From Escherichia coli (GTDB lineage Bacteria > Pseudomonadota > Gammaproteobacteria > Enterobacterales > Enterobacteriaceae): a stretch of 64,000 nucleotides of DNA. The stretch lies in assembly GCF_009931435.1 (NCBI RefSeq), contig NZ_CP043414.1. One strand, given 5' to 3'. The notes under the pieces were generated by a model. It worked only from the letters and a program-made list of their open reading frames with translations, did not search any database and was not told the origin of the DNA. The position numbers and the translations under genes are program-made. Shown in pieces: positions 35,305 to 51,398 of this stretch. Every line of letters begins with the position of its first letter. Position 1 is the first letter of the stretch.

Positions 35305-36705
35305 ATGCCACATTCCTACGATTACGATGCCATAGTAATAGGTTCCGGCCCCGGCGGCGAAGGCGCTGCAATGGGCCTGGTTAAGCAAGGTGCGCGCGTC
35401 GCAGTTATCGAGCGTTATCAAAATGTTGGCGGCGGTTGCACCCACTGGGGCACCATCCCGTCGAAAGCTCTCCGTCACGCCGTCAGCCGCATTATAGAAT
35501 TTAATCAAAACCCACTTTACAGCGACCATTCCCGACTGCTCCGCTCTTCTTTTGCCGATATCCTTAACCATGCCGATAACGTGATTAATCAACAAACACG
35601 TATGCGTCAGGGATTTTACGAACGTAATCACTGTGAAATATTGCAGGGGAACGCTCGCTTTGTTGACGAGCATACGTTGGCGCTGGATTGCCCGGACGGC
35701 AGCGTCGAAACACTAACCGCTGAAAAATTTGTTATTGCCTGTGGTTCTCGCCCTTATCATCCAACAGATGTTGATTTCACCCATCCACGCATTTACGACA
35801 GCGACTCAATTCTTAGCATGCACCACGAACCGCGCCATGTACTTATCTATGGTGCTGGAGTGATCGGCTGTGAATATGCGTCGATCTTCCGCGGTATGGA
35901 TGTAAAAGTGGATCTGATCAACACCCGCGATCGTCTGCTGGCGTTTCTCGATCAGGAGATGTCAGATTCTCTCTCCTATCACTTCTGGAACAGTGGCGTA
36001 GTGATTCGTCACAACGAAGAGTACGAAAAGATCGAAGGCTGTGACGACGGTGTGATTATGCATCTGAAGTCGGGCAAAAAGCTGAAAGCCGACTGTCTTC
36101 TCTATGCCAACGGTCGTACCGGTAATACCGATTCGCTGGCGTTACAGAACATTGGGCTGGAAACTGACAGTCGTGGACAGCTGAAGGTCAACAGCATGTA
36201 TCAGACCGCACAGCCACACGTTTACGCGGTGGGCGACGTGATTGGTTATCCGAGCCTGGCGTCGGCGGCCTATGACCAGGGGCGCATTGCCGCGCAGGCG
36301 CTGGTGAAAGGCGAAGCCACCGCACATCTGATTGAAGATATCCCTACCGGTATTTACACCATCCCGGAAATCAGCTCTGTGGGCAAAACCGAACAGCAGC
36401 TGACCGCGATGAAAGTGCCATATGAAGTGGGCCGCGCCCAGTTCAAACATCTGGCACGCGCACAAATCGTCGGCATGAACGTGGGCACGCTGAAAATTTT
36501 GTTCCATCGGGAAACAAAAGAGATTCTGGGCATTCACTGCTTTGGCGAGCGCGCTGCCGAAATTATTCATATCGGTCAGGCGATTATGGAACAGAAAGGT
36601 GGCGGCAACACTATTGAGTACTTCGTCAACACCACCTTTAACTACCCGACGATGGCGGAAGCCTATCGGGTAGCCGCGTTAAACGGTTTAAACCGCCTGT
36701 TTTAA
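35305..36705 (+). CDS. sthA: Soluble pyridine nucleotide transhydrogenase SthA (UdhA)
   Basis: 466 aa [59 protein letters not shown]... Confidence 0.97.
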
Positions 36706-37605
36706 CACTTTATCGAAATGGCCATCCATTCTTGCGCGGATGGCCTCTGCCAGCTGCTCATAGCGGCTGCGCAGCGGTGAGCCCGGACGATAAACCAGGC
36801 CAATAGTGCGGCGTGGTTCCGGCTTAATACACGGCAAATAAACAACCCCATCGCGTTTGCGCTCCGGCGGCACAGCCAGTGCAGGCAGTAAAGTGATCCC
36901 GCTACCTGCCGCCACCATGTTGCGCAGAGTTTCCAGGCTGGTCGCGCGGAAGTGTGTATCTTCATCCGCCCCGGCTTCAAAGCAGAAACCCATTGCCTGA
37001 TCGCGCAAACAGTGACCATCTTCCAGCATCAGCAGTTTTTCCCCTGCCAGATCGGCCATCGGTACGCATTCGCGGTTCGCCCACGGGTGATCTTCATAGA
37101 TAGCCAGCAACATTGGCTCATCAAACAACGGCACTTCAATGAATGCTTCGCTCTCTTTCACCAGCGCGAGGATCACGCAATCGAGTTTGCCGCTGTCCAG
37201 TTGCGCCAGTAACTGGTGGGTCTGTGCTTCATGCAGATACATTTCCAGCTTTGGAAAGGTCTGGTGCAGCATCGGGATAATATGCGGTAACAGGTAAGGC
37301 CCAACCGTTGGAATCAAACCAATATGCAGCGGTCCGGACATCGTCTCACCCTGCTGGCTTGCCATCTCTTTAAGGACTTTCACCTCACGCAGCACGGTAC
37401 GCGCCTGATCCACCAGCAGCATTCCCGCCTGGGTGAACAACACTTTACGGCTGGTCCGCTCCAGCAACATCACGCCCAGCTCATCTTCCAGCTTACGAAT
37501 TTGCCCGCTAAGCGTCGGCTGGCTAACGTGGCAGGAGTCTGCCGCACGCCGAAAATGGCGGTGTTCAGCCAATGCCACCAGGTACTCAAGATCACGAATA
37601 TTCAT
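36688..37605 (-). CDS. oxyR: LysR-family hydrogen peroxide-responsive regulator OxyR
   Basis: Track ORF 36688..37635; homologous start [54 protein letters not shown] (305 aa); 3' end overlaps sthA convergently by 18 bp. Confidence 0.97.
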
Positions 37606-37609
37606 TATC

Positions 37610-37700
37610 CATCCTCCATCGCCACGATAGTTCATGGCGATAGGTAGAATAGCAATGAACGATTATCCCTATCAAGCATTCTGACTGATAATTGCTCACA
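37610..37700. promoter_or_regulatory. oxyR-oxyS divergent promoter region with OxyR binding site
   Basis: GATAGGTAGAATAGCAATGAACGATTATCCCTATCAAGCATT (ATAG-n7-CTAT type repeats) followed by a TGATAAT -10 box just upstream of the oxyS start. Confidence 0.7.
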
Positions 37701-37809
37701 GAAACGGAGCGGCACCTCTTTAACCCTTGAAGTCACTGCCCGTTTCGAGAGTTTCTCAACTCGAATAACTAAAGCCAACGTGAACTTTTGCGGATCTCCA
37801 GGATCCGCT
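37701..37809 (+). ncRNA. oxyS: OxyS small regulatory RNA
   Basis: GAAACGGAGCGGCACCTCTTTAACCCTTGAAGTCACTGCCCGTTTCGAGAGTTTCTCAACTCGAATAACTAAAGCCAACGTGAACTTTTGCGGATCTCCAGGATCCGC followed by a T-run; matches oxyS; divergent from oxyR. Confidence 0.9.
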
Positions 37810-37855
37810 TTTTTTTATTCTACAGGCCCACAGCAAGAGAGCCTGATAGTAACAG

Positions 37856-39139
37856 TTACTCAATCCGATCTTTGACAATAAAGAAGTAACACAGCGCCCC
37901 GGTGAATGTCACACAGGCCGCGATAACCAGCGCCAGATTAAACGAGTGCGTGGTATCCACTACCCAACCGGTTACGATCGGAGCAAAGGAAGCAAAAACA
38001 AAACTGCCAAAGTTTTGAATCCCGGCGATGGAAGCCACTTTTGTTTCTGACACCATCACCTGCACCAGTCCCCATGCAGATGTTCCCGCGAAATGCACGC
38101 AGAACAGCGCCATTGAGATAAACGCTACAGCCTGGGCTGGCGAGGAGGATTGCACGACCAGCAACGTGCCTAATGCCGACATCATCAAACCGCAGACAAT
38201 AGCCGTTTTACGCGTCTTCGCCAGGTCGTAGCCTTTTTTCGCCAGCCGATCGACAACAATACCGTTAACCCACATCCCGACCGCCGCCGCGAGGAAAGGA
38301 ATCGCCGCCACCCAACCGGTTTTCGCCAGACTGAAGCCTTGCTCGGCTTGTAAATAACCGGGTAACCACGCGATGTAGAGCCAACCGGTATAATTGACGC
38401 CAGAGAAACCTAAAATCATCCCCCAGGTTGTCCGATGCTTAAACAGCGCCAGCCACTCGCTAAATTGTAATTGTGGACGCGGTTTAACCGGCGCGGAGAG
38501 ATAGGTCCGTTCTTCGTCGGTCAGGACAAACTGCGCCCGGTTGCGATACCACGCGTACCAACAGATCCCAACCAGAATCCCCGCCACGCCGATGATGACG
38601 AACATTGCCCGCCAGCCCCATGCCAGCTGCATCAATACAAGAGCAGGAGGCGCAATAGCCTGACCGATAACGGTAGATGAGTTAAAAATCCCCAGCGCCG
38701 TGCCGCGTTCTTTTTGCGCATACCAGTCGGTGATCGACTTTACTCCCGCAGGCATAAATGGCGCTTCGCCAATACCCAGACCGATACGCATTAAAATAAA
38801 GTGGCTAAAAGAATTAACCATTCCTGTTAATGCCTGCATTAATGACCAGAATATTAAGCCTGCGCCTAAAACTATTCGTGGGCCAAAGCGGTCTAGCAAA
38901 ATACCGGAAGGGAGTTGTGAAAAACCATAAGACAGAGAAAATGCAGAAAGCAAAACGCCAAATTCTGTCGCCGATAATCCTAACTCGCCACGAATCGCTT
39001 CGCCTGCCACGCTCAATGACGAACGGTCGAGGAAATTAACGATCCCCGCCATAAATAATAAAACCAGCGTTACTGTCTGAATACGACGAATCCGTTGCGG
39101 TTTATTACCCGCAACACTGGTTGACACATCAACGTCCAT
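37856..39139 (-). CDS. MFS transporter, anion:cation symporter (ACS) family; sugar-acid (DgoT/ExuT/GudP-like) permease
   Basis: 427 aa, 12 predicted hydrophobic segments; N-terminal LLFMAGIVNFLDRSSLSVAG and GLGIGEAPFMPA motifs typical of ACS-family hexuronate/aldonate transporters. Confidence 0.8.
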   Translation of the reverse strand: MDVDVSTSVAGNKPQRIRRIQTVTLVLLFMAGIVNFLDRSSLSVAGEAIRGELGLSATEFGVLLSAFSLSYGFSQLPSGILLDRFGPRIVLGAGLIFWSLMQALTGMVNSFSHFILMRIGLGIGEAPFMPAGVKSITDWYAQKERGTALGIFNSSTVIGQAIAPPALVLMQLAWGWRAMFVIIGVAGILVGICWYAWYRNRAQFVLTDEERTYLSAPVKPRPQLQFSEWLALFKHRTTWGMILGFSGVNYTGWLYIAWLPGYLQAEQGFSLAKTGWVAAIPFLAAAVGMWVNGIVVDRLAKKGYDLAKTRKTAIVCGLMMSALGTLLVVQSSSPAQAVAFISMALFCVHFAGTSAWGLVQVMVSETKVASIAGIQNFGSFVFASFAPIVTGWVVDTTHSFNLALVIAACVTFTGALCYFFIVKDRIE

Positions 39140-39205
39140 TTTTAGCTCCTTGAGCGGAATTAATCGATTTGCTGACTATTCAGAAAATAATTAAGCGAAC
39201 CGTTA

Positions 39206-40417
39206 TTACCAGTTCCACAATGTGCCATCTTCCAGTCGTGCGACGGGGAGATACGCCGGGTCATACGGATATTTCGCCGCCAGTTTCTCATCGAAAGAAA
39301 TACCCAGCCCCGGTTCATCGCCTGGGTGCATATAACCTTCATCGAAGCGCCAGCTGTGCGGGAAGACTTCAAGCATTTGTTCGGAATAGCCCATGTACTC
39401 CTGAACACCAAAGTTTGGCACCCAGAGGTCAAAATGCAGCGCCGCCGCATGACAAACAGGCGATAAATCTGAAGGGCCATGCGAACCGGTACGTACCTGA
39501 TAAAGCGATGCAAAATCGGCAATCCGTCGCATCCCGGTAATGCCGCCTGCATGGGTAATCGTCGTGCGAATATAGTCAATCAGCTGCTCTTCGATTAACT
39601 GCTTGCAGTCCCAGATACTGTTAAACACTTCACCGACCGCAATCGGCGTCACAGTATGCTGGCGAATCAGACGAAAACATTCCTGGTTCTCGGCAGGCGT
39701 CGGATCTTCCATCCACAACAGGCGGTAATCCTCAATGCTCTTCCCAAAGCGCGCCGCTTCGATAGGAGTCAGGCGATGGTGCATGTCATGCAACAGATGT
39801 TCGTTAAAACCGAACTTATTACGCACCGCTTCAAATAACTTCGGTGTAAAATCGAGATACTTTTCTGAAGACCACAACTGCTCTTCCGGCCACAGGCCTT
39901 TGGTTGCCGGTTCATACGCCAGTCCTTTGCCCTTCGCCAGGCCATAAGTGGTTTGCATACCCGGTACACCGCACTGCACACGAATCGCCTTAAAGCCCAT
40001 CTGCTGGTGCTTTGCATAGTCTTCAAGGACTTCATCAATCGTGCGCCCGGTGGTGTGGCAATAAACCATCACGCCTTCACGAGAAGCCCCACCAAGCAGT
40101 TGATACAATGGCATATTTGCCGCTTTGGCTTTGATATCCCACAACGCCATATCAATGGCAGAAATGGCCGACATCGTGACGGGGCCACGTCGCCAGTAAG
40201 CACCTTTATAAAAGAATTGCCAGATATCTTCGATACGGCTGGCATCGCGGCCAATTAATTGTGGACAAAGATGATCTTTCAGATAAGAAGCGACCGACAA
40301 TTCGCGACCATTTAATGTGGCATCTCCCAATCCACAAATTCCGCTTGCAGTGGTTATTTTAAGCGTAACGAAATTACGTCCTGGGCAAGTAACAAAAACA
40401 TCTGCAGCAATAATTTT
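39206..40417 (-). CDS. Enolase-superfamily dehydratase, D-mannonate dehydratase (ManD/RspA-like) subgroup
   Basis: Track ORF 39206..40480; homologous start [59 protein letters not shown]...; very similar to E. coli RspA as I recall it. Confidence 0.85.
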
Positions 40418-40768
40418 CATTATTGCAATCTCCTGTGTTGTAAATAGACGCTTCAAACTTAATTTTACGCCTACTACCATACAAGAGAGAAAGGGCGATT
40501 ATTCAACCGTGATCACATTAAAAATAAAAATTTCCGCCGAGGAACAAAAATATCCTCAAATCTCACCTACACTATTAACTACCATCGTTAAAACAACGTG
40601 TTAAATAATCACATAACAAATTCCTTTAAGGAAAGGAGTTATAACAACAACAAAAGATAATCATATTTTACTTAATTCAATACGTATCGATAGGTTTATT
40701 TAAAAAGGATTTTTCGGAATGAGAGATGAAAAGAAGATACACAAGCAGGAAGAAATACGATTAATATT

Positions 40769-40904
40769 AGTTGCGGTAAGGGTAGCCGTTCCTCCCTTCC
40801 GCAACCCATTAACCGTTGAAGTCACAGACTATTTCAGGCATTTCTCAACTCAAAATAACGACAGCCAACGTGAACTTTATGGCTCTCCAGGATCTGCTTT
40901 GTTT
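40769..40904 (+). ncRNA. oxyS-like element: diverged second copy (paralog or relic) of the OxyS sRNA
   Basis: AACCGTTGAAGTCACAGACTATTTCAGGCATTTCTCAACTCAAAATAACGACAGCCAACGTGAACTTTATGGCTCTCCAGGATCTGCTTTGTTTT aligns at about 80 percent identity by eye to oxyS 37722-37817; a 5' stem-loop and a TAATAT -10-like box sit upstream; terminator stem is degenerate. Confidence 0.5.
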
Positions 40905-40908
40905 TCCA

Positions 40909-42387
40909 TCAAACAACGGAGCTCAGCGCACTGGCTACCTGTTTAAAGCGAGCAAACCGTCGCCTGAGCATGTGTGCTTTTTCTACATTCGGTTCAAGAC
41001 GAATCACGTTGAGCTGCGTAGCCTTCATGGCCTGTTTGAATCCAGAATAAGCCCCTCCTCCTACTGCCGCACACATTGCAGCCGCTCTACAACCTGACTG
41101 TTCAATATCGACAATTTCAAGAGGCATTTTGCTGGCATCACAAAACATCTGCATCCAGATTCTGGAATGCGTTGGCCCGCCAGAGAAACGAATCGTTTGC
41201 AATGACTTATCAATCTCAATAAGACGGTCCTGATGCAACAAATGAGAAAAGACAACGCCCTGATAAATAGCGTACACCAAATCTTCTCTTTTATGATGCC
41301 CACACAGCCCCAAAAATCCCCCGCTTAATGCCTCATGGTAATTCGAGCCAAACAACCACGGGAAAAAGAGAATATCATTCTGTTTCTCATACCCTCGTTC
41401 CACCCACTCATTAATCACCCGATAACTGTCAGGAAGACCCGGTAAAAATTGCTGCAAGAACCATGTTAAATTACTGGCTGATGTAGGGCTTCCCTCATGG
41501 GCGAAAAATGTACCTGGAATGCTAAATTTCCCCCATACATAGGGATAATCAGAAGGAATAATGCGATCAAAGATTCGCGTTGCAATTGACCAGGTGCCAG
41601 CAACCGCACTTAACGTTGTACTGTCATAGATGCCAGAAGTGAGCGCCGCACCAACGACATCAAAAACACCACCAAAAACAGGCGTTCCGGCGAGAAGCCC
41701 ACATTGGCTGGCTGCTTCAGATGTCACAAACCCAGCTAAATCAGCGGAGCCAATAATATCGGGAACCTTACCCGCAACTTCCTTAATCTCAAATAGGCGA
41801 AAAAGTTCAGCATCATAAGCACTGGTATATTGATTATAAAAATTACTGCCTGAAATATTGGTTTCTTCACAAGCCAGTTTGCCAGTAAGCCGTGAACGTA
41901 TGTAATCATGAACCATCAAAATGGTTCCGATGCGGCCATAATTGTCAGTCTCATGTTTTTTCAACCAATGCAATAGTGCTACAGGGTGCGATGGCCAGAG
42001 CTGTTGCAGACTACGGTGATAACTTTCGCGGTCAATTCCTTGTTCTTTCCAGCTTGCAACCAGTTGTTGTGCGCGAGAATCAGAGGAAACAATGCCGTGT
42101 CGTAAGGGCTTACCTTGCCGGTCGAGCAGGTACAAACCTTTACCATGAGCAGAAAAACTGATGCCATCAATCTGACTCGCAGTAATATTGTTATCTGACA
42201 TCGACAGTGAAATGACCTGGCACGTTACCTTCCATAACGCCTCCATGTCGCGTTCGCAAAAACCAGGACATGGGCTTAACAGAGGTAACGCCTGCGAAGA
42301 GACACCTATTTCACGTCCTTCTGCCGTATAAATTCCCGCTTTGGTTTCTGTACCACCTAAATCGACACCAATAAAATACCGCTCCAT
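40909..42387 (-). CDS. FGGY-family carbohydrate kinase (L-xylulose/3-keto-L-gulonate kinase LyxK-like)
   Basis: 492 aa MERYFIGVDLGGTETKAGIY... with FGGY N- and C-terminal signatures (HDY..., SGGPTHSRIWMQM); family assignment confident, substrate not. Confidence 0.85.
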   Translation of the reverse strand: MERYFIGVDLGGTETKAGIYTAEGREIGVSSQALPLLSPCPGFCERDMEALWKVTCQVISLSMSDNNITASQIDGISFSAHGKGLYLLDRQGKPLRHGIVSSDSRAQQLVASWKEQGIDRESYHRSLQQLWPSHPVALLHWLKKHETDNYGRIGTILMVHDYIRSRLTGKLACEETNISGSNFYNQYTSAYDAELFRLFEIKEVAGKVPDIIGSADLAGFVTSEAASQCGLLAGTPVFGGVFDVVGAALTSGIYDSTTLSAVAGTWSIATRIFDRIIPSDYPYVWGKFSIPGTFFAHEGSPTSASNLTWFLQQFLPGLPDSYRVINEWVERGYEKQNDILFFPWLFGSNYHEALSGGFLGLCGHHKREDLVYAIYQGVVFSHLLHQDRLIEIDKSLQTIRFSGGPTHSRIWMQMFCDASKMPLEIVDIEQSGCRAAAMCAAVGGGAYSGFKQAMKATQLNVIRLEPNVEKAHMLRRRFARFKQVASALSSVV

Positions 42388-42403
42388 GATCCCTCCTTAG
42401 TTT

Positions 42404-43267
42404 CTAAATATTATCCCAGCCGGCAAGGCGCATTTTCTCTTCAATCCATTGACGTGCATGAATAATTTCTAATAGAGGTTCCGTCGCTTTTTCTGTCCAC
42501 ATTTCTATCAGAAACGTTCCGCGATAATTAAGATTACGCAGGATCTTAAATAATTTAATAAAATCTACACACCCTTCACCAAAAGGAACGTCACGAAATT
42601 GCCCTGGAGAATCAGGCGTTACTGGGTACGTATCTTTAAGATGGATTGCGGCAATTCGATCAATCCCCTTTACCAGCTCACTTTCCAGTTCATTACCCCA
42701 TGCGGTCAGATTGCCAACATCCGGATAAACGGTAAACCAAGGGGAATTAATTTTTGTATCCAGGACTTTCCATTTACTAATAGAATTAATAAATGGCGTA
42801 TCCATGATCTCTACAGCACACATAACTTGTGCCGCTGCGGCCTGTTCAGCTGTCCAGGCCATCGCATCTTCAAACCAGGCGATAGTTTCTTCATTCTGCG
42901 GCTCATAATAAACGTCATAGCCTGCCAGTTGGATTGTTCGAATCCCCAAATCCTGCGCCAGGCGTAACGCCTTCAACATAATCGTACGTGCCTGCTGACG
43001 AGTATCTCTATCATGGCTACCAAATGGAAAACGCCGGTGAGCAGACAGGCACATTGTCGGAATACGGATCCCCGTTTGCTGAATGGCGCTAATAAGCTCC
43101 ATACGCTCGGTGAGCGACCAGTCCAGGCGGGCGAGTCGTTCATCATTCTCATCTACCGACATCTCAACAAAATCAAAACCGCAAGATTTAGCCAGGGCTA
43201 GTTTCTCTACCCAACTGGTATTCCTGGGTAGCGCTTTTTCATAAATACCTAACGGGTGGCGTCGCAT
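42404..43267 (-). CDS. Sugar-phosphate 3-epimerase of the xylose-isomerase-like TIM-barrel family (L-ribulose-5-phosphate 3-epimerase SgbU/UlaE-like)
   Basis: 287 aa MRRHPLGIYEKALPRNTSWVEKLALAKSCGFDFVEMSVDENDERLARLDWS...IRTIQLAGYDVYYE...HLKDT...FLIEMW; close resemblance to SgbU/UlaE as I recall them. Confidence 0.8.
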   Translation of the reverse strand: MRRHPLGIYEKALPRNTSWVEKLALAKSCGFDFVEMSVDENDERLARLDWSLTERMELISAIQQTGIRIPTMCLSAHRRFPFGSHDRDTRQQARTIMLKALRLAQDLGIRTIQLAGYDVYYEPQNEETIAWFEDAMAWTAEQAAAAQVMCAVEIMDTPFINSISKWKVLDTKINSPWFTVYPDVGNLTAWGNELESELVKGIDRIAAIHLKDTYPVTPDSPGQFRDVPFGEGCVDFIKLFKILRNLNYRGTFLIEMWTEKATEPLLEIIHARQWIEEKMRLAGWDNI

Positions 43268-44343
43268 TATTTTCCCTCACGAGTGATCAATTGTTGTTGA
43301 AAGATTTTCCGGCTCTTATTCATGTCACGCTGCAACTGCCATTTTTGTTTGATGAATTTAAATGCCAGTGCGGCGATCAATGTGATCCCCCATACCGCCA
43401 GATTGAAATGCAAACTAAGTCCCAACAGACTAAGGCCGGTAGCAATAACCTGAAGCACAAGTAAGGCACAAAAAACATGACTGACTTTACCCGCCCCACC
43501 GAATGGATCTGTGCCTCCCAATACAATTGCAAGAACCGTCAAGAGCAGATAGGAATCGCCATAGCCCATACGCGCCGAATTAAATCGCGCGAGCATAATA
43601 AGACCTGCTAATACACACAACATGCTGGATATAGCATATATAGCAATTAATACGCGGTCGGTGCGAATACCGCTAAACCATGTGGCGTTAATATTACTGC
43701 CACACATATAAATCGTTTTTCCCGTACGGGTTTTGCCGAGGAACAGAGCTAAAGCAACGGTGGTGACGATAAAAATTATCATCGGTACTGGGATCCCCAT
43801 GATAACTTCAGACCCAATACTGCGGACTACTGGTGGCATACCACTTAAAGCTGCCCCCTTAGTCAGGTAAATACCGATACCACTAATAATGGTCATGCTA
43901 CCCAATGTGACCAAAATAGGGTGAGCGCCTATATGAGAAATAATTGACCCAGTAATAGCTCCAATGATGATGGCAATAAGCATCGCCCCGACAATAGCCA
44001 GGAAGAGCCAAAACAACTGACTACCTGTAGATGCATCTGCGGGTACATATTGAATCAACAGCCAGGCCATAAACAGGCTGGTCAGATTCGCAGTACCGAT
44101 GATTGCCAGATTGAGCCCCCCGCTCAACATGGGTATAAACATCGCAAACGTGAGCAACCCAAGCTCTGGCAATTGAAATGCAATGCTCAGAAAAGTATTG
44201 CCGGTGAAAAAACGCCCCGGCATTACCAGACTAAATAACACCACCGCAATAAAACATATTGATAATAAGCCTGAACTGGTACCATCTAGTGGAAAAAATA
44301 TCCGCTTGTTCATTTCGATCCTCCCGTTAGACGAAACCAACAT
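43267..44343 (-). CDS. ABC transporter permease (CUT2, RbsC/LsrD-like)
   Basis: 358 aa polytopic membrane protein; stop/start overlaps neighbours within the ABC operon. Confidence 0.8.
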   Translation of the reverse strand: MLVSSNGRIEMNKRIFFPLDGTSSGLLSICFIAVVLFSLVMPGRFFTGNTFLSIAFQLPELGLLTFAMFIPMLSGGLNLAIIGTANLTSLFMAWLLIQYVPADASTGSQLFWLFLAIVGAMLIAIIIGAITGSIISHIGAHPILVTLGSMTIISGIGIYLTKGAALSGMPPVVRSIGSEVIMGIPVPMIIFIVTTVALALFLGKTRTGKTIYMCGSNINATWFSGIRTDRVLIAIYAISSMLCVLAGLIMLARFNSARMGYGDSYLLLTVLAIVLGGTDPFGGAGKVSHVFCALLVLQVIATGLSLLGLSLHFNLAVWGITLIAALAFKFIKQKWQLQRDMNKSRKIFQQQLITREGK

Positions 44344-45319
44344 CAGTTTCTTTACGTTTTTTGTAATGGGTCACACAAATCGCCGAGACAATAACCACTC
44401 CAATAACGATATTGACGAAATAACTCGAGATGCCAATCAAATTAAGGCCGTTTTTAAGAATACCGATAAGAAATACGCCCATAAGCGTACCAATGACCGT
44501 ACCACGTCCGCCTGATAAACTGGCACCGCCCAATACCGCTGCAGCCAGCACATCCAACTCTCCGCCAACCAATGCATTCGGCACAACTTCACTCATACGA
44601 TAAGCTTGCAGCATTCCACCAATTGCTGCAGCGGCACCAAGATAACCATAAGCAAACAGATAAATTAGCGACACCCGAATCCCAATACGTCTTGCTGATT
44701 CGGTATTCCCTCCCACGGCATAAAGCTGACGCCCAATATGGGTTTTGTTCATTATCATCCACGTCAGAAATGCCATTCCCAGCATAACCACTAACGGTAA
44801 TCCGATCTGGTAATCTTCTCCGCCAAATTCAAAACTCAGGAAAGAACGCTGCGTAATCCACCAATCCGGTAAATCGTAAATACTGTGGCCATTAGTCAAC
44901 CACATCAACATACCGAACAGTAGCGACTGCATACTAATCGTAATGATGATGGAAACGACATTAAGGTAATAAATAAGAATAGCGTTTATCAAACCAAAAA
45001 TGATGCCAAGAAAAACAGCAAACACCAGACAGAAAAATGGATTTGATAGCGTTTCATTAAGCAGTAACGACGCCACAACATATTGCACAACCGAAGCTAC
45101 TGCTGCAAAAGAGATATCAATTCCGCCAGTAACCAATACGACAAATAATCCGAGGGCGAAAATACCCGTTACGGCATAACTTTCCGAGAGATCGAGCAAG
45201 TTCTGTATTGATAAAAACTCATCGCTCATGATGGAAAAAAATACCAGCATGAGAACAATGACCCATCCTAACCAAGCTTCGACTGAACGAGGAAACCGCA
45301 GCCGCATAAAGCTAACCAT
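44327..45319 (-). CDS. ABC transporter permease (CUT2, RbsC/LsrC-like)
   Basis: 330 aa polytopic membrane protein with GGIDISFAAV and GGxSLxGGRGT motifs typical of ribose-type permeases. Confidence 0.8.
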   Translation of the reverse strand: MVSFMRLRFPRSVEAWLGWVIVLMLVFFSIMSDEFLSIQNLLDLSESYAVTGIFALGLFVVLVTGGIDISFAAVASVVQYVVASLLLNETLSNPFFCLVFAVFLGIIFGLINAILIYYLNVVSIIITISMQSLLFGMLMWLTNGHSIYDLPDWWITQRSFLSFEFGGEDYQIGLPLVVMLGMAFLTWMIMNKTHIGRQLYAVGGNTESARRIGIRVSLIYLFAYGYLGAAAAIGGMLQAYRMSEVVPNALVGGELDVLAAAVLGGASLSGGRGTVIGTLMGVFLIGILKNGLNLIGISSYFVNIVIGVVIVSAICVTHYKKRKETDVGFV

Positions 45320-46829
45320 TAATCACCTCCGCCAACTGCTGCTCGGTATAATTCGAAGGCAACAGCTCATTAATAATCTTTCCGCGCTTCATATGAAAAA
45401 TACGATCGCAGTTATAATAAGCTTCTGGTGCTTCATCAGTAATTAATATCACTGAAATACCCACACCTGAAAGCCGATGAATAAGCTGGTAAATACTATC
45501 TTTTGCGCCAATATCTACACCTACCGTTGGCGCATCCAGAATTAAAACCTTAGGTCGTGTTAAAATCCATTTAGCCAGGACAACCTTTTGTTGATTGCCG
45601 CCAGATAGCGTTGAAAGTGGATTATTTGGATCGGTGACTTTAATATCCAAATCCTGGATCCACTCCTTGACTAAGGTTTCTTTTCGATTTTCATCAATAA
45701 ACCCCGATGCCGTCTTTAAACGATCCAGAATCGAGAGCACCATATTATCGCTGATAGATTGGGGTAATACGGCCCCCAGTGTCAGGCGATCTTCTGAAAC
45801 ATATGCTATTCCCAGTTTTACCGCATGCGTGTTGTCTTTAATTGTAACGGGCTTACCTTCCAGATAAATATCACCACTATCTGGTCGAGTAATACCGAAA
45901 AGACTCAATGCTAATTCAGTTCTCCCCGCACCAAGTAAACCACACAATCCCAGAACCTCGCCCTGGTGTAGTTTTAGAGAAACATCTTCAAATTGCCCTT
46001 TTCTGCATAATTTGTTTAGTTCAAGGACTACTTTGCCTTCAACGCTATTTGGTAGCTTCTTCTGGTGGACTATAGTTTTTCCGGTCATTAACTCAGTAAT
46101 ATCGCCCGGAGAAAGTTGATTGGCAGCCCACGTTCCAATTATCTCTCCATCACGGATGACCGTAATCCGATCTGAAATTTCCTTAACTTCATCAAGGCGG
46201 TGGCTAACAAAAACTACGGTAATATTTTTATCGCGTAAGTAATTCACTGTGCGTAGTAATTGATTAACTTCTGTACGCGTCAATGATGCCGTTGGCTCGT
46301 CCATGATGACTAACCGGGCATCGGCAATCAGAGCCCGGCAAATCGCGACCTGTTGGCGTTGTGCAATCGGCAAATGTTGTACTAACGCATCAGGATCGAG
46401 ATTGAATTGCAGCTCCTGAATTATTTTCTGCGATACATCTCGAAGTTGTTTTTTTCTGTGCAGCCCTAAATATCCCTTCAGGTTGTATTCAAAAGCGATA
46501 TTTTCAGCAACAGAAAGATTTGGGAATAAAGAAAGATCCTGATATATCACCTGAATACCCAGTTCCCGAGCTTTATCAGGAGAAAGACGAGTCCAGGACT
46601 TACCATCTATAATAATTTCACTTCCCGAATCAGGGACATAAACACCACACAGCGTTTTGATCAGAGTACTTTTACCACACCCATTCGCACCAGCAAGACA
46701 ATGAACCTCACCTTTATTTAAGGTAAGATTGATATTCTTTAGAGCCCTATGGCCACCGAAACTTTTCGTTAGTGACCTTAGCGTCACTAATGGTTGCTCC
46801 GCATTCTTCTCTATAATATGAGGCATCAT
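45312..46829 (-). CDS. Sugar ABC transporter ATP-binding protein with duplicated ABC domains (RbsA/LsrA-like)
   Basis: 505 aa; first Walker A GANGCGKST, LSGGNQQK-type signature, second degenerate P-loop GLLGAGRTE as in CUT2 ATPases. Confidence 0.85.
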   Translation of the reverse strand: MMPHIIEKNAEQPLVTLRSLTKSFGGHRALKNINLTLNKGEVHCLAGANGCGKSTLIKTLCGVYVPDSGSEIIIDGKSWTRLSPDKARELGIQVIYQDLSLFPNLSVAENIAFEYNLKGYLGLHRKKQLRDVSQKIIQELQFNLDPDALVQHLPIAQRQQVAICRALIADARLVIMDEPTASLTRTEVNQLLRTVNYLRDKNITVVFVSHRLDEVKEISDRITVIRDGEIIGTWAANQLSPGDITELMTGKTIVHQKKLPNSVEGKVVLELNKLCRKGQFEDVSLKLHQGEVLGLCGLLGAGRTELALSLFGITRPDSGDIYLEGKPVTIKDNTHAVKLGIAYVSEDRLTLGAVLPQSISDNMVLSILDRLKTASGFIDENRKETLVKEWIQDLDIKVTDPNNPLSTLSGGNQQKVVLAKWILTRPKVLILDAPTVGVDIGAKDSIYQLIHRLSGVGISVILITDEAPEAYYNCDRIFHMKRGKIINELLPSNYTEQQLAEVING

Positions 46830-46892
46830 AATATTCCTGAATACGACTAAAGGAATTCCGGGTCAAATTTGACCCGGTGATTTACGGTAAAA

Positions 46893-47897
46893 TTACAAGC
46901 CTAGCTTCACTAAACGTCGTGTATTTTCAAGATCGAGCTTTTCTGGATTATCACTATAAATAGTGTTGTTATTAACCTTGATCTCGCCCATATCACCGAT
47001 TTTTACACCGTCTTTAATAGGTTCACCGTTCATCATTGCCGTCGCAACCTGGACAAAAACCTTACCCGCAATCATAGGGTTTGAAATATATCCCCCATCA
47101 ATGGCACCTTTTTCGAGTAGCTTAATTCCCTGACCTGGAGTGAAGGTTCCAAAAACGCAAATTGCATCATTTTTCTTCCGCTTATCAATAGCACGCCCCG
47201 CACCAATTGGTCCTTGTGAACCAAATGACATAATGCCTTTAAGATCTTTATATTTAGACATTAAATCGTTCGTCGTGCGCATTGAATCATCCACCGACTC
47301 AGCAACACCAAAACGATCTTCAACCAACGTCATATTTGGATAATGTTCTTTTTGATAGGCAATCGCGGCATTGGCCCAGTCATTTACCAAAGGCACAGTC
47401 AGACTGCCGACAAACATGGCGTATTTACCTTCTTCGCCCATACACTTCGCCATATCTTTCATATGATTGGCACCCATTGTCTGGGTATTTAACAACTCAA
47501 AATCCCAATCTGCATTTTTTTGATCTGGTGATTCGTGGGTAATAACTTTAATACCGGCTTCTTGTGCACGCTTAAGTACAGGTTCAAGAACCTTTGCATC
47601 GTTAGGAACAACACCAATAACATCCACTTTTCGTGCAATTAAATCTTCAATCGCCCGAACCTGTTCAGCTGGATCTGCCGTTGTAGGGCCGACCTGCCAT
47701 GCATCAACCCCCAATAGTTTTCCTTCATTTTTAATGCCTTGTTCCATCACATTAAACCAGGGAATTCCACCGACTTTTACTACTACCCCCATCGTAAAAG
47801 GTTTATTCGCTTTTTGTGATGTTACAGTCTGATCAGCCCATGCAGCAGTGGAAGATAATACGGTAGCAATAAGGCAGGGTAAGATTAATTTTTTCAT
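46893..47897 (-). CDS. Periplasmic sugar-binding protein (PBP type I, LsrB/RbsB-like) with signal peptide
   Basis: 334 aa MKKLILPCLIATVLSSTAAWA (signal peptide) followed by a two-lobe sugar-binding fold pattern. Confidence 0.8.
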   Translation of the reverse strand: MKKLILPCLIATVLSSTAAWADQTVTSQKANKPFTMGVVVKVGGIPWFNVMEQGIKNEGKLLGVDAWQVGPTTADPAEQVRAIEDLIARKVDVIGVVPNDAKVLEPVLKRAQEAGIKVITHESPDQKNADWDFELLNTQTMGANHMKDMAKCMGEEGKYAMFVGSLTVPLVNDWANAAIAYQKEHYPNMTLVEDRFGVAESVDDSMRTTNDLMSKYKDLKGIMSFGSQGPIGAGRAIDKRKKNDAICVFGTFTPGQGIKLLEKGAIDGGYISNPMIAGKVFVQVATAMMNGEPIKDGVKIGDMGEIKVNNNTIYSDNPEKLDLENTRRLVKLGL

Positions 47898-48019
47898 CGT
47901 AATTTCCTTAAGAAATAGTTCAGGTGTCAGGAAAACTCGATATAATATCGACCTGACTATTTATATAATTTATAATCCCTTAGGCATTGATTAATAATTT
48001 AGACAATAAATAACGCCTA

Positions 48020-48829
48020 TTATTTATCAACCTCCACAATGTTTAATTGTGGAAATTGTGTTCGATACCGAGTATCTGTACAAACATTAGTCACCAGAAT
48101 ATCGATTTCATCCAGCGTGCATATTTTACTAAATGCATACTGTTCAAACTTAGTGGAGTCGACCAGCAATATTTTTTGTCCTGACACCTGAAGCATCACC
48201 TGTTTAAGTCTGGCATTAATTTCACTGCCATCGCGGACACCATTCCCCAGATTCAACCCCTGGCATGAAAAGAAAAAACTGTTGATTTGAAAATTTCGGA
48301 TCGCACTCTCTGCAACCGGGCCATGAAAATCATCATGTCGCTCAGAATACTCACCACCGATACCAATAATTCGAACTCGATCACGGCAAGCTAACGCCTG
48401 AATTATCCGTAATGAATTTGTAACTACGGTAACATCTATATCGGGAATTTGACGAGCTAAAAACCAACAAGTACTACTGTTATCCATTAAAATACAATCA
48501 CCAGGGTGAATAAATTGCAATGCGGCCTTCGCAATTCTGGCTTTTATATCAGGATTTTCTTCAGTCCGTTTACGGAATGATTCCGCACGATCGATACTAT
48601 TATCTTGCCACGCATTATCGGCGAGCATAACCGGAGCGCTATCAGATGAATCCAGAGCGACCGCGCCACCAAAGCTACGGATTAACTTTTTGTTGCGCTC
48701 CAGTACCGTTAAATCCCGACGAATTGTCTCAGGAGACGCTTTAAATAATCGTGATAATTCAGTTACCCGCACAGCACCTTGTTTTTGTACATGTGCGCAT
48801 ATCATTTTATGGCGCTCTGCCTGCAACAT
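48020..48829 (-). CDS. DeoR/GlpR-family transcriptional regulator
   Basis: 269 aa; N-terminal HTH (VTELSRLFKASPETIRRDLTVLE) and C-terminal DeoR sugar-phosphate-binding domain; first gene of the minus-strand operon. Confidence 0.85.
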   Translation of the reverse strand: MLQAERHKMICAHVQKQGAVRVTELSRLFKASPETIRRDLTVLERNKKLIRSFGGAVALDSSDSAPVMLADNAWQDNSIDRAESFRKRTEENPDIKARIAKAALQFIHPGDCILMDNSSTCWFLARQIPDIDVTVVTNSLRIIQALACRDRVRIIGIGGEYSERHDDFHGPVAESAIRNFQINSFFFSCQGLNLGNGVRDGSEINARLKQVMLQVSGQKILLVDSTKFEQYAFSKICTLDEIDILVTNVCTDTRYRTQFPQLNIVEVDK

Positions 48830-49282
48830 AGTATCGGTCCGTTATTATCAAATTAGCATGCTTATATAATTAACTGTTCCCTCATAAAATAAAGTGATAG
48901 GAATCAAGATTCATTTTATAATTATAATCGCAAACAGGAATGGTGATCTTTATCACAAATTAAATTGAGAACACTCTACTATTTGACATTACTTTGAGAT
49001 ATCGGTCACTAAATAAGTCTTATTCTGCCATCTAACGAAAAATTTAAATACAAAAACAAAAATAATCGGGCATAGCAATCGCTTCCATTCATGACCGAAT
49101 ACGCCCGAATAAAACCGTTTATACCCACTTATCCTCTTTCGTTGCCTTCTTACATGCCTTGAATATTTTACATTTCTTATATTCAGCGTAATTTAGGAAA
49201 CATAATTTATGAGCAAAAAAAGCCCAAACTCAAAAGTTAAAGTTTATTTATATAATACATACAGATTATCGTGGAGTTAAAA

Positions 49283-49975
49283 ATGGATATGCTAAAGGAA
49301 AAAGTTCTTGCTGCGAATTTATCATTACCCCTTCATCAGTTAGTGACGTTTACCTGGGGAAATGTTAGTGGTGTTGATCGCGAAAAAGGTGTCATGGTTA
49401 TTAAACCTTCTGGGGTCGAATACAGCCAAATGGGCATTGCAGATATGGTGGTAGTGGATTTACAAAGTGGTGAAGTTATTGATGGACACAGGAAACCCTC
49501 TTCAGACACCGATACTCATCTGGCGCTATACCGTGCTTTCCCGGATATTGGTGGTATCGTTCATACCCATTCCCGACACGCCACAATATGGGCTCAGGCC
49601 GGAAAAGATCTCACGGCCTTTGGGACAACCCACGCTGATTATTTCTACGGCACTATCCCCTGTACACGCCCCATGAAGGATGACGAAATTAATGGACAAT
49701 ATGAATATGAAACGGGGCGAGTGATTATTGAAACGTTCAGACAACGAGAAATATCTCCCGCTGACATTCCGGCTGTTTTAGTAAACAGTCATGGCCCCTT
49801 TGCCTGGGGAACTGATCCCGCGAACGCCGTGCATAACGCCGTTGTACTTGAAGAAATTGCCTATATGAATCTCTTTACACAACAACTACAGCCCCATCTT
49901 ACGGCTATTCAACAGCCTCTACTGGATAAGCATTTTTTACGCAAGCATGGTGCCAATGCTTATTACGGGCAGTAA
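49283..49975 (+). CDS. L-ribulose-5-phosphate 4-epimerase (class II aldolase fold; AraD/SgbE/UlaF paralog)
   Basis: Track ORF 49271..49975; about three-quarters identical by eye to AraD ([31 protein letters not shown]...[14 protein letters not shown]...HGPFAWG...[18 protein letters not shown]); start chosen by alignment, alternative ATGs at 49271 and 49289. Confidence 0.85.
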
Positions 49976-50024
49976 CCCTCTTAGCATGGCCTGGCGTTTT
50001 GCCAAGCCATAAATCGCCTAAGAC

Positions 50025-51398
50025 TTACTCCAACCGCGCCTGCGCAAAAGCAATCGCCTGCGCCACCTGCTGCGGTGAGACGCCGCCTTTTGCCGCACGC
50101 TTGTCGAGGCACGATTGCAGCGACAGAATCGGATAGACATCTTCGCCAATCACCTGACTGAATTTCTGCAACTCACTGAGCGGCAGATCTTCCAGCGGTT
50201 TGCCCTGACGAATGGCTTCCACCACCGCTTCACCAACAATATGGTGCGCCTCGCGGAACGGCACACCTTTCGCCACCAGGTAATCCGCCAGTTCAGTGGC
50301 GTTCGCATACCCCTGCTGCGCCGCTTCCTGGCAACGTGGGCGTTTCACCTGAATGCCGTCCAGCACCAGCGCCGCCATATGCAGGCAGTCCAGCCAGGTA
50401 TCGAGCGCGTCGAATAAGCCCTCTTTGTCTTCCTGCATATCTTTGTTGTAAGCCAGCGGCAAACCTTTCAGCGTCATCATCATGCCAGTCAACGCGCCCT
50501 GAACACGACCGCATTTACCCCGAATCAGCTCCAGCGCATCCGGGTTTTTCTTCTGCGGCATTAATGATGAACCGGAAGTCACGCGATCAGAAAGCTCCAC
50601 AAAACCCGCTTCGCCGGTGTTAAAGAAAATCAGATCTTCGGCAAAACGCGACAAATGCACCATACCGATAGCGGCGGCAGAAAGCAGTTCCAGCACGTGG
50701 TCGCGGTCAGAAACGCTGTCGAGACTGTTACGGGTCGCCGAGGCAAAGCCCAGCCAGCCTGCTAACTGTTCACGGTCGATTTCATAAGCCGTTCCCGCCA
50801 GTGCGCCACAGCCTAACGGGCTGACATCCAGACGCTTAAGCGCATCCTGCAAACGACTTTCATCACGCGCCAGCATCTCAACATAGGCCAGGCACCAGTG
50901 CGCGAACGTCACCGGCTGGGCGCGTTGCAGGTGAGTGTAACCAGGCATTACCGCGTCCTGATTATTCTGCGCGGTCTCGACCAGAGCGGATTGTAACTGT
51001 CGGTTAGCCGTCAGTAACTCGCTAACGGTATCTTTGCACCACAGTTTCAGGTCAGTCGCTACCTGATCATTACGGCTACGCCCGGTGTGCAGTTTTTTGC
51101 CTAACTGGCCCACTTTGTCGATCAGTTTGCCTTCTACCCAGCTATGGATATCTTCAGCGTCGCTTTCAAGAATTTGTTGTGGTCTGGCGCGAACATCTTC
51201 CAGCAGCACATTGAGCGCCTCTTCCAGTTGCACCTGTTCTTCTGCGGTTAACACGCCTACCGTTACCAGCGCTTTGGACCAGGCCACAGAGCCAACAATA
51301 TCCTGCTCCGCCAGACGGTAATCAAAGCGCAGTGAGTCGTTGAATTGTTTAAACCGTTGATCTGCTGCCTGGGTAAAACGCCCGCCCCAAAGTGCCAT
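50025..51398 (-). CDS. argH: Argininosuccinate lyase
   Basis: 457 aa [45 protein letters not shown]... Confidence 0.97.

Follow-up and report, generated by a model that had tools for sequence, protein, structure and literature searches.

An accessory island of Escherichia coli carries a candidate cassette for L-xylulose import and catabolism

Among the described sugar pathways, those closest to the eight-gene island analysed here, which lies in a 64,000-nucleotide stretch of an Escherichia coli chromosome (NCBI RefSeq assembly GCF_009931435.1, contig NZ_CP043414.1; this whole stretch is referred to below as the window), are yiaK-S, with its LyxK-SgbH-SgbU-SgbE tail, and ula, with UlaD-UlaE-UlaF. 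Both end at D-xylulose-5-phosphate (D-xylulose-5-P), and they are served by a tripartite ATP-independent periplasmic (TRAP) transporter (YiaMNO) and by a phosphotransferase system (PTS; UlaABC), respectively. The accessory L-arabinose uptake (Aau) locus, found in enterohaemorrhagic E. coli, has no linked enzymes, is controlled by AraC and L-arabinose, and borrows AraB (Cottam et al. 2025, PMC12307932), and the work on AauA and on Rbl, a D-ribulose locus of Citrobacter rodentium, indicates that rare ketopentoses matter for gut colonisation (2025, PMC12307932). The island joins chemistry of the yiaK-S tail to an Aau-related importer, a combination that is found in neither known system. From an analysis that is computational and sequence-based throughout, we propose, as a reading that is probable but well short of certain, that the island is a self-contained cassette for the import and catabolism of L-xylulose, controlled by a DeoR-family regulator and probably by CRP. 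The catabolic chemistry is already known; the importer, its specificity and its mobile packaging are uncharacterised, and the literature searched yielded no account of this locus, nor of any L-xylulose ATP-binding cassette (ABC) importer or other bacterial importer dedicated to this sugar.

The island resembles yiaK-S and ula in its homologous kinase, in its possession of both epimerases, and in its end product, D-xylulose-5-P. It differs from both in the lack of a 3-keto-L-gulonate-6-phosphate (3-keto-L-gulonate-6-P) decarboxylase, a reductase and a lactonase, in the replacement of the TRAP or PTS transporter by a CUT2 ABC importer, and in being a mobile, low-GC accessory unit present in 2.7% of genomes rather than a core locus. 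Its regulator is of the DeoR type, unlike the IclR-type PlaR of yiaK-S, and falls below the cut-off of the UlaR model (112 bits, cut-off 244). With Aau, the island shares the binding-protein family, the CUT2 layout, most of the sugar contacts, and the status of an enteric accessory locus for what would again be a rare ketopentose, but it has, unlike Aau, its own kinase, two epimerases and a DeoR regulator. The likeness to Rbl is one of concept, namely, a dedicated ABC importer combined with an FGGY kinase for a free ketopentose; going by its description, Rbl encodes the D-ribulokinase RblK and an isomerase and needs no epimerases, whereas the island kinase is LyxK-like and its epimerases belong to the L-series.

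In the proposed mechanism, the AauA-family periplasmic protein would capture the ketopentose, probably as a furanose, and the CUT2-type ABC transporter, with one fused ATPase and two permeases, would import it with high affinity. The LyxK-like kinase would then convert L-xylulose to L-xylulose-5-P, the SgbU-type 3-epimerase would convert L-xylulose-5-P to L-ribulose-5-P, and the AraD/SgbE-type 4-epimerase would convert L-ribulose-5-P to D-xylulose-5-P. The DeoR-family protein would probably repress transcription at tandem 10-bp repeats located between the divergent promoters, with repression probably relieved by a phosphorylated intermediate and with cyclic AMP (cAMP)-CRP exerting a further, predicted level of control. 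The same order of enzymatic steps had been put forward in a first-pass annotation of this DNA, and the profile scores, the sequence identities and the gene context in about 24 other species argue for it.

We identified eight intact open reading frames (ORFs) between positions 40909 and 49975 (Table 1), which agree with the genes annotated by RefSeq on an E. coli chromosome of 99.9% identity and confirm the ORFs and strands of the first-pass annotation. All eight have full-length homologues, with E-values down to 1e-236, so that the gene set is far beyond chance; the names that these genes carry in RefSeq are generic only. The AraD-like gene that had been recognised opposite the operon is indeed of that family; its start codon is most likely ATG 49283, which is preceded by GGAG 7 nt upstream, rather than GTG 49271.

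Both epimerases passed the curated NCBIfam equivalog cut-offs. The 3-epimerase scored 458 bits against TIGR00542 (cut-off 272) and 476 bits against NF009689, and is 71% identical to K-12 SgbU; the 4-epimerase scored 414 bits against TIGR00760 (cut-off 389) and 434 bits against NF009002 (cut-off 386), and is 72% identical to K-12 SgbE. The kinase aligns with K-12 LyxK over its full length (43% identity over 489 amino acids), and reached only about 95-130 bits against FGGY kinases of solved structure, XylB and LsrK included; by sequence, LyxK is its nearest characterised relative by a wide margin. These scores and identities bear out the gene identifications that had been made from the letters alone, as well as the likeness to the LyxK-SgbU-SgbE tail of yiaK-S and ula. 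The kinase passed no curated NCBIfam model, remaining below the cut-offs for XylB (200 bits, cut-off 380), LsrK (138 bits, cut-off 528), GntK, GlpK and pentulose kinases, and no curated LyxK model was among its NCBIfam matches. A D-ribulokinase identity was rejected, the match to the pentulose/D-ribulokinase subfamily model being partial and weak (93 bits, cut-off 409). The N-terminal D-x-G-G, F-D-V-V and G-G-P motifs line up between the kinase and LyxK, and no sign of inactivation was seen in this alignment.

No ORF for a decarboxylase, lactonase, isomerase or dehydrogenase was found within the island (40630-50024), as had been noticed in the first pass, and a decarboxylase, dehydrogenase or isomerase is likewise missing from each of the approximately 24 orthologous cassettes. 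The 3-epimerase, in turn, is kept in every cassette (72-91% identity), and, because it is conserved under purifying selection, L-xylulose-5-P is predicted to be an intermediate of the pathway. L-xylulose-5-P reportedly arises either from the decarboxylation of 3-keto-L-gulonate-6-P or from the phosphorylation of L-xylulose (Yew and Gerlt 2002), and the latter is the only known source where the decarboxylase is missing. Given that no cassette includes a decarboxylase and that the binding protein is of a ketopentose type, the import of free L-xylulose appears to be the most economical explanation.

The shared LyxK-like kinase could also be taken to mean that a six-carbon keto acid, such as 3-keto-L-gulonate or 2,3-diketo-L-gulonate, is imported, phosphorylated by this kinase and decarboxylated by UlaD or SgbH of the host, such that the island would be an accessory tail of ascorbate-type catabolism: LyxK, the nearest characterised kinase at 43% identity, reportedly acts on 3-keto-L-gulonate in the yiaK-S pathway (Yew and Gerlt 2002), and E. 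coli has sgbH. We consider this very unlikely in view of the absence of a decarboxylase from all of the approximately 24 orthologous cassettes, which span eight genera, and because the binding-protein family consists of binders of neutral ketopentoses, with two pocket glutamates (E122 and E200) that would disfavour a carboxylate. Furthermore, the known uptake of such acids proceeds via TRAP or PTS transporters, not via CUT2 ABC importers.

The specificity of the importer can be approached through its binding protein, for which the closest solved structures are 3D02 from Klebsiella (287 bits) and 9I1M (285 bits), the latter being AauA of enterohaemorrhagic E. coli in complex with alpha-D-ribulose (dissociation constant, KD, 2 uM; PMC12307932). 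The island protein and AauA align without gaps over 272 residues (49% identity). Of the six AauA sugar contacts that we compared (K37, W43, E118, H167, E196 and S223), five are kept in the island protein (K41, W47, E122, E200 and S227), whereas the position of H167 is occupied by V171. In AauA, His167 is stacked against the sugar ring, and no other residue is reported to form a hydrogen bond with the C4 hydroxyl (PMC12307932). Among 119 relatives, all 11 members of the cassette clade (defined by at least 79% identity) have Val at position 171, and all 108 others have His. Only three further positions are clade-specific, and one of these, W/Y272S, aligns with RbsB Q235, a ribose contact. L-xylulose (3R,4S) and D-ribulose (3R,4R) are C4 epimers and do not differ otherwise. 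Because V171 replaces the sole reported contact of the C4 hydroxyl, the pocket seems to have changed precisely where the difference between L-xylulose and D-ribulose would be read, and, with the H167 contact lost across the clade, the alignment identifies the island protein as an AauA relative with an altered pocket, not as an AauA equivalent.

The conservation of five of the six D-ribulose contacts of AauA could also suit another ketopentose, that is, L-ribulose, D-ribulose, or L-ribulose together with L-xylulose in conjunction with a promiscuous kinase; L-ribulose-5-P occurs as an intermediate in the pathway that the island encodes, and FGGY pentulose kinases, such as AraB, can be promiscuous (PMC12307932). 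Such a substrate is nevertheless unlikely, because D-ribulose-5-P would require neither epimerase and L-ribulose only the 4-epimerase, yet the 3-epimerase is kept everywhere; this argument bears on either ribulose alone, and mixed uptake of L-ribulose and L-xylulose is conceivable. Against D-ribulose in particular stand the poor match of the kinase to the D-ribulokinase model given above and the replacement of the residue that reads the C4 hydroxyl of this sugar.

The components of the importer are those of the CUT2 (ribose-type) class, namely, a fused two-domain ATPase, BPD_transp_2 permeases and a Peripla_BP_4 binding protein, as judged from NCBIfam matches and from the Pfam domains of the orthologues. 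The ATPase scored 400-450 bits against the XylG, AraG, YtfR and RbsA models, in each case under the equivalog cut-off. The best NCBIfam match of the binding protein was the RhaS model, but the score (126 bits) is far below the cut-off (342), and a RhaS-like rhamnose transporter was rejected. The transporter had been described at first as being of the LsrB/RbsB type; its binding protein turns out to be only distantly LsrB/RhaS-like and to belong to the AauA family, which strengthens the pentulose reading.

The Lsr system is similar to the island in architecture, with a periplasmic binding protein, an ABC importer, an FGGY kinase and a repressor that is presumably relieved by a phosphorylated product, and weak profile matches to LsrB, LsrA, LsrC, LsrD and LsrK could be read as further signs of an Lsr-like system for autoinducer-2 (AI-2), in the form of derivatives of 4,5-dihydroxy-2,3-pentanedione (DPD). 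We give this reading almost no credence, and an LsrB-type AI-2 receptor was rejected. The residues aligned with the reported AI-2 contacts of LsrB (K35, D116, D166, Q167, P220 and A222; Miller 2004, Pereira 2009) are K41, E122, L170, V171, F225 and S227, of which one in six is identical, and the binding protein scored 103 bits against the LsrB model (cut-off 384), with the kinase similarly far below the LsrK cut-off. Moreover, the island ORFs include no LsrF, no LsrG and no SorC-type LsrR, the regulator being of the DeoR type; the processing of phospho-AI-2 does not involve the two L-pentulose-phosphate epimerases; and the product of the island pathway would enter the pentose phosphate pathway. 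The earlier caveat that the substrate might be a furanosyl, signal-like molecule does not hold for AI-2 and Lsr but is relevant in another way, since L-xylulose has been reported as an AI-2 mimic (PMC12921845).

To follow the cassette across bacteria, one genome per species was scanned with the binding protein, and all eight proteins were then used in tblastn searches. Wherever the binding protein is at least 82% identical, the species representative carries the same syntenic eight genes and no extra enzyme, the only exceptions being contig ends and one poor assembly. The carriers are Atlantibacter, four Citrobacter, Erwinia, Pantoea coffeiphila, four Yersinia, two Serratia, Affinibrenneria and about nine Providencia species, such that the context is conserved in approximately 24 other species from about eight genera of Enterobacterales, and the flanks are unrelated between genera. 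In loci with a binding protein at most 62% identical, the kinase, the 3-epimerase and the 4-epimerase are all absent, whereas the Val-type clade of binding proteins always co-occurs with the kinase and both epimerases in the close species representatives found. Across the orthologous loci, conservation is highest for the binding protein (84-97% identity) and lowest for the kinase (60-81%).

The His-type sister clade (about 62% identity; Pectobacterium and relatives; loci L012, 9146-17093, L035-L047 and L050) is part of a different conserved operon, with a DeoR regulator, an ABC transporter, an AlsE-type D-allulose-6-P 3-epimerase, an AlsK-type kinase and a ribokinase, all above the NCBIfam cut-offs. 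This operon, of which no description was found in the literature, may serve to take up D-allulose (psicose) or another D-ribo sugar. As AlsE and AlsK are enzymes for sugars of the D-ribo configuration, the sister clade would fit the same pattern at the C4 position of the pocket.

More distant LyxK-like kinases (49-54% identity) were identified in Klebsiella (L005, 4250-13060), Chania (L011, 5243-14105) and Vibrio nigripulchritudo (L009, 2058-11482). In these clusters, the kinase is accompanied by both epimerases, as in the island, and by a Zn-dependent, polyol-type dehydrogenase, an RbsB-like binding protein, an ATPase, a single permease and a LacI or DeoR regulator. The Klebsiella variant is very common, with its kinase cluster (P0063) comprising 829 member sequences on 517 contigs and in 1,230 blocks of the collection. 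Because both epimerases stand beside these kinases as well, the association between this kinase lineage and the two L-pentulose-phosphate epimerases is a recurrent one. The clusters probably encode pathways from a pentitol to L-xylulose, presumably starting from the pentitol and not from L-xylulose itself, and they are probably related to the Pantoea ananatis xylitol operon (Aarnikunnas et al. 2006).

These clusters also raise the question of whether the true substrate of the island might be xylitol, L-arabinitol or L-lyxose, with L-xylulose made inside the cell by a dehydrogenase or isomerase of the host and the island contributing no more than transport and the later steps; rhamnose isomerase can convert L-lyxose to L-xylulose. 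We regard this as distinctly improbable, given that the clusters with a dehydrogenase rely on another type of binding protein, which is RbsB-like, and have one permease only, and that the AauA-type cassette lacks a dehydrogenase or isomerase in all species examined. In addition, the AauA-family pocket stacks a cyclic ketofuranose on Trp, and open-chain polyols would be expected to bind otherwise.

Several loci depart from these arrangements. In Pasteurella skyensis (L010, 8834-13865), a LyxK-like kinase (44% identity) has as its neighbours another FGGY kinase, a Zn-dehydrogenase and a short-chain dehydrogenase, and no epimerase is encoded nearby. The cassette of Yersinia pestis NCTC5923 contains about 760 extra bases between the binding-protein and ATPase genes (L024, 11002-11865), and one Y. 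pestis kinase entry (P0082) covers only 71% of the query; these changes resemble the gene decay that is typical of Y. pestis. Among gut Firmicutes, Blautia and other Lachnospiraceae (L052-L067) have relatives of the binding protein at 36-39% identity, each beside an ABC ATPase and a permease.

A number of observations weigh against L-xylulose as the substrate of the island. The physiological substrate of LyxK in K-12 is thought to be 3-keto-L-gulonate, so that likeness to LyxK does not by itself specify L-xylulose, and most habitats are believed to contain little free L-xylulose. The argument from the pocket stands on a sequence alignment to one crystal structure, and the exchange of His for Val might just as well point to a different ligand. 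The E. coli kinase is just 70% identical to its nearest orthologue, that of Atlantibacter, compared to 81-95% for the other seven proteins, and this fast evolution could reflect relaxed constraint, adaptation or an old gene replacement. Several carriers of the cassette are plant-associated rather than gut bacteria. The CRP-like sites are not statistically distinctive, with 3 observed in the window vs. 1.9 expected. Finally, IS1 splits the kinase gene in several island-positive clinical isolates, for example, E. coli 23AR0303 (L013, 3910-6164), and IS5 is inserted in the island of one genome. The cassette is thus undergoing inactivation in some E. coli lineages, and selection for the island is not universal.

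Table 1. Genes of the island and non-coding elements identified or predicted within and around it (positions in the window)
Feature	Position	Strand	Basis or remark
FGGY kinase, LyxK-like, predicted L-xylulokinase	40909-42387	-	43% identity to K-12 LyxK
L-xylulose-5-P / L-ribulose-5-P 3-epimerase, SgbU/UlaE type	42404-43267	-	NCBIfam TIGR00542, NF009689
ABC permease 2 (BPD_transp_2)	43267-44343; RefSeq start 44313	-	
ABC permease 1 (BPD_transp_2)	44327-45319	-	
ABC ATPase, two fused ABC domains (CUT2 / RbsA-XylG type)	45312-46829	-	NCBIfam
Periplasmic binding protein with signal peptide, AauA-family paralogue	46893-47897	-	Homology to 9I1M
DeoR/GlpR-family regulator, first gene of the minus-strand set	48020-48829	-	Partial NCBIfam matches
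L-ribulose-5-P 4-epimerase, AraD/SgbE type, divergent	49283-49975	+	TIGR00760, NF009002
Strong hairpin, about 95 nt downstream of the kinase stop codon	40758-40815	-	Probable operon terminator
Stem-loop, perfect 8-bp, GC-rich, between binding-protein and ATPase genes	46858-46877	-	Terminator-like scan match CCGGGTCAAATTTGACCCGG
CRP-like site GGTGATCTTTATCACA	48942-48957		1 mismatch to TGTGA-N6-TCACA
Three tandem 10-bp direct repeats ATAAACGGTT TTATTCGGGC GTATTCGGTC	49093-49122	-	Candidate DeoR operator

The regulator aligned over its full length with the FucR, SrlR, AgaR and GlpR models, in all cases below the cut-off, and its orthologues carry an N-terminal HTH_DeoR domain (PF08220) and a C-terminal, sugar-phosphate-binding DeoRC domain (PF00455). 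DeoR-family repressors typically respond to phosphorylated intermediates, which makes L-xylulose-5-P the obvious candidate inducer. The divergent intergenic region is 453 bp long. A pattern search of 20 orthologous intergenic regions revealed an array of 2-4 repeats, roughly WTTCGGKCR, in 15 of them; the five regions without a strict match include four Providencia loci, and one aligned Providencia locus shows a degenerate version. The tandem repeats are a candidate operator for the DeoR-family protein. Sites similar to the CRP-like site occur in some of the orthologous intergenic regions.

The hairpin downstream of the kinase gene has a predicted folding energy of -29.4 kcal/mol (z = -5.8), with none of 200 shuffled sequences as stable; it is probably the terminator of the operon, its tail being moderately U-rich only. 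The stem-loop that separates the genes for the binding protein and the ATPase may determine how much binding protein is made relative to the membrane components. An Rfam scan of positions 36000-51000 matched only OxyS and identified no riboswitch in the island, and a promoter scan found fewer sigma-70-like matches than in shuffled sequences and was uninformative.

The window covers the oxyR-argH region of the E. coli chromosome, and the island is located between oxyS/manD and argH. Comparison of the window to an island-free locus using blastn delimits an inserted block of 9.4 kb (40630-50024), with a GC content of 42.8% vs. 50-53% in the flanks; strains that have the manD gene and its neighbour for a major facilitator superfamily (MFS) transporter but lack the island contain 276 unrelated bp at its position. 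Of the 5,426 complete E. coli genomes, 146 (2.7%) carry the island, always on the chromosome, in a single copy and at the same site, and its alleles form two groups, with 99.9% identity (9 genomes) and about 98.6% identity (137 genomes). Many of the 146 carriers appear to be ESBL or OXA-48 clinical isolates. The GC content of the cassette is well below that of the host in E. coli and Citrobacter and matches that of the host in Yersinia, Pantoea, Serratia and Providencia, which suggests that acquisition was recent in the former two. The island is horizontally acquired, mobile and rare in E. coli.

Between oxyS and the island, the window contains the genes for the MFS transporter and for a ManD-type (enolase-superfamily) dehydratase (37856-40480), both of which are lacking in K-12. 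The pair was found at the same site in 1,860 of the 5,426 complete genomes, which makes the oxyS-argH gap a nested hotspot for accessory sugar genes. As the source of the missing upstream steps of the pathway, the pair was ruled out: it is present in 1,860 genomes compared to 146 for the island, its GC content is normal, and the orthologous cassettes elsewhere have unrelated flanks. The OxyS small RNA (37701-37809, plus strand), which matches its Rfam model with 133 bits, is intact and keeps its normal position, divergent from oxyR, despite the adjoining insertions.

In mammals, L-xylulose is a metabolite of the glucuronate pathway and is excreted in pentosuria (PMC12435205), and it is reported to be released by Caco-2 human epithelial cells as a host-made AI-2 mimic, with a half-maximal effective concentration (EC50) of about 6 uM at LuxP (2026, PMC12921845). 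There is a small chance, which we raise as speculation, that the cassette scavenges such a host-made signal mimic, in the form of L-xylulose from stressed gut epithelium or from urine, and that minority lineages of E. coli, together with Yersinia, Providencia and Citrobacter species, are the scavengers. In that case, the carriers would gain a private carbon source and would lower an AI-2-mimic signal to their neighbours, as Lsr does for AI-2.

If the assignment to L-xylulose is correct, the cassette would be the third uptake system for a rare ketopentose in enteric bacteria, after Aau and Rbl. The two clades of binding proteins (His/Trp vs. Val/Ser) would then be a natural pair for the study of how the pocket reads C4 stereochemistry, and the island, a clean presence/absence marker (2.7% of complete genomes) that could link a metabolic trait to particular clinical lineages, would provide a genetic handle for testing if a quorum-sensing mimic of host origin is consumed, and thereby quenched, by gut bacteria.

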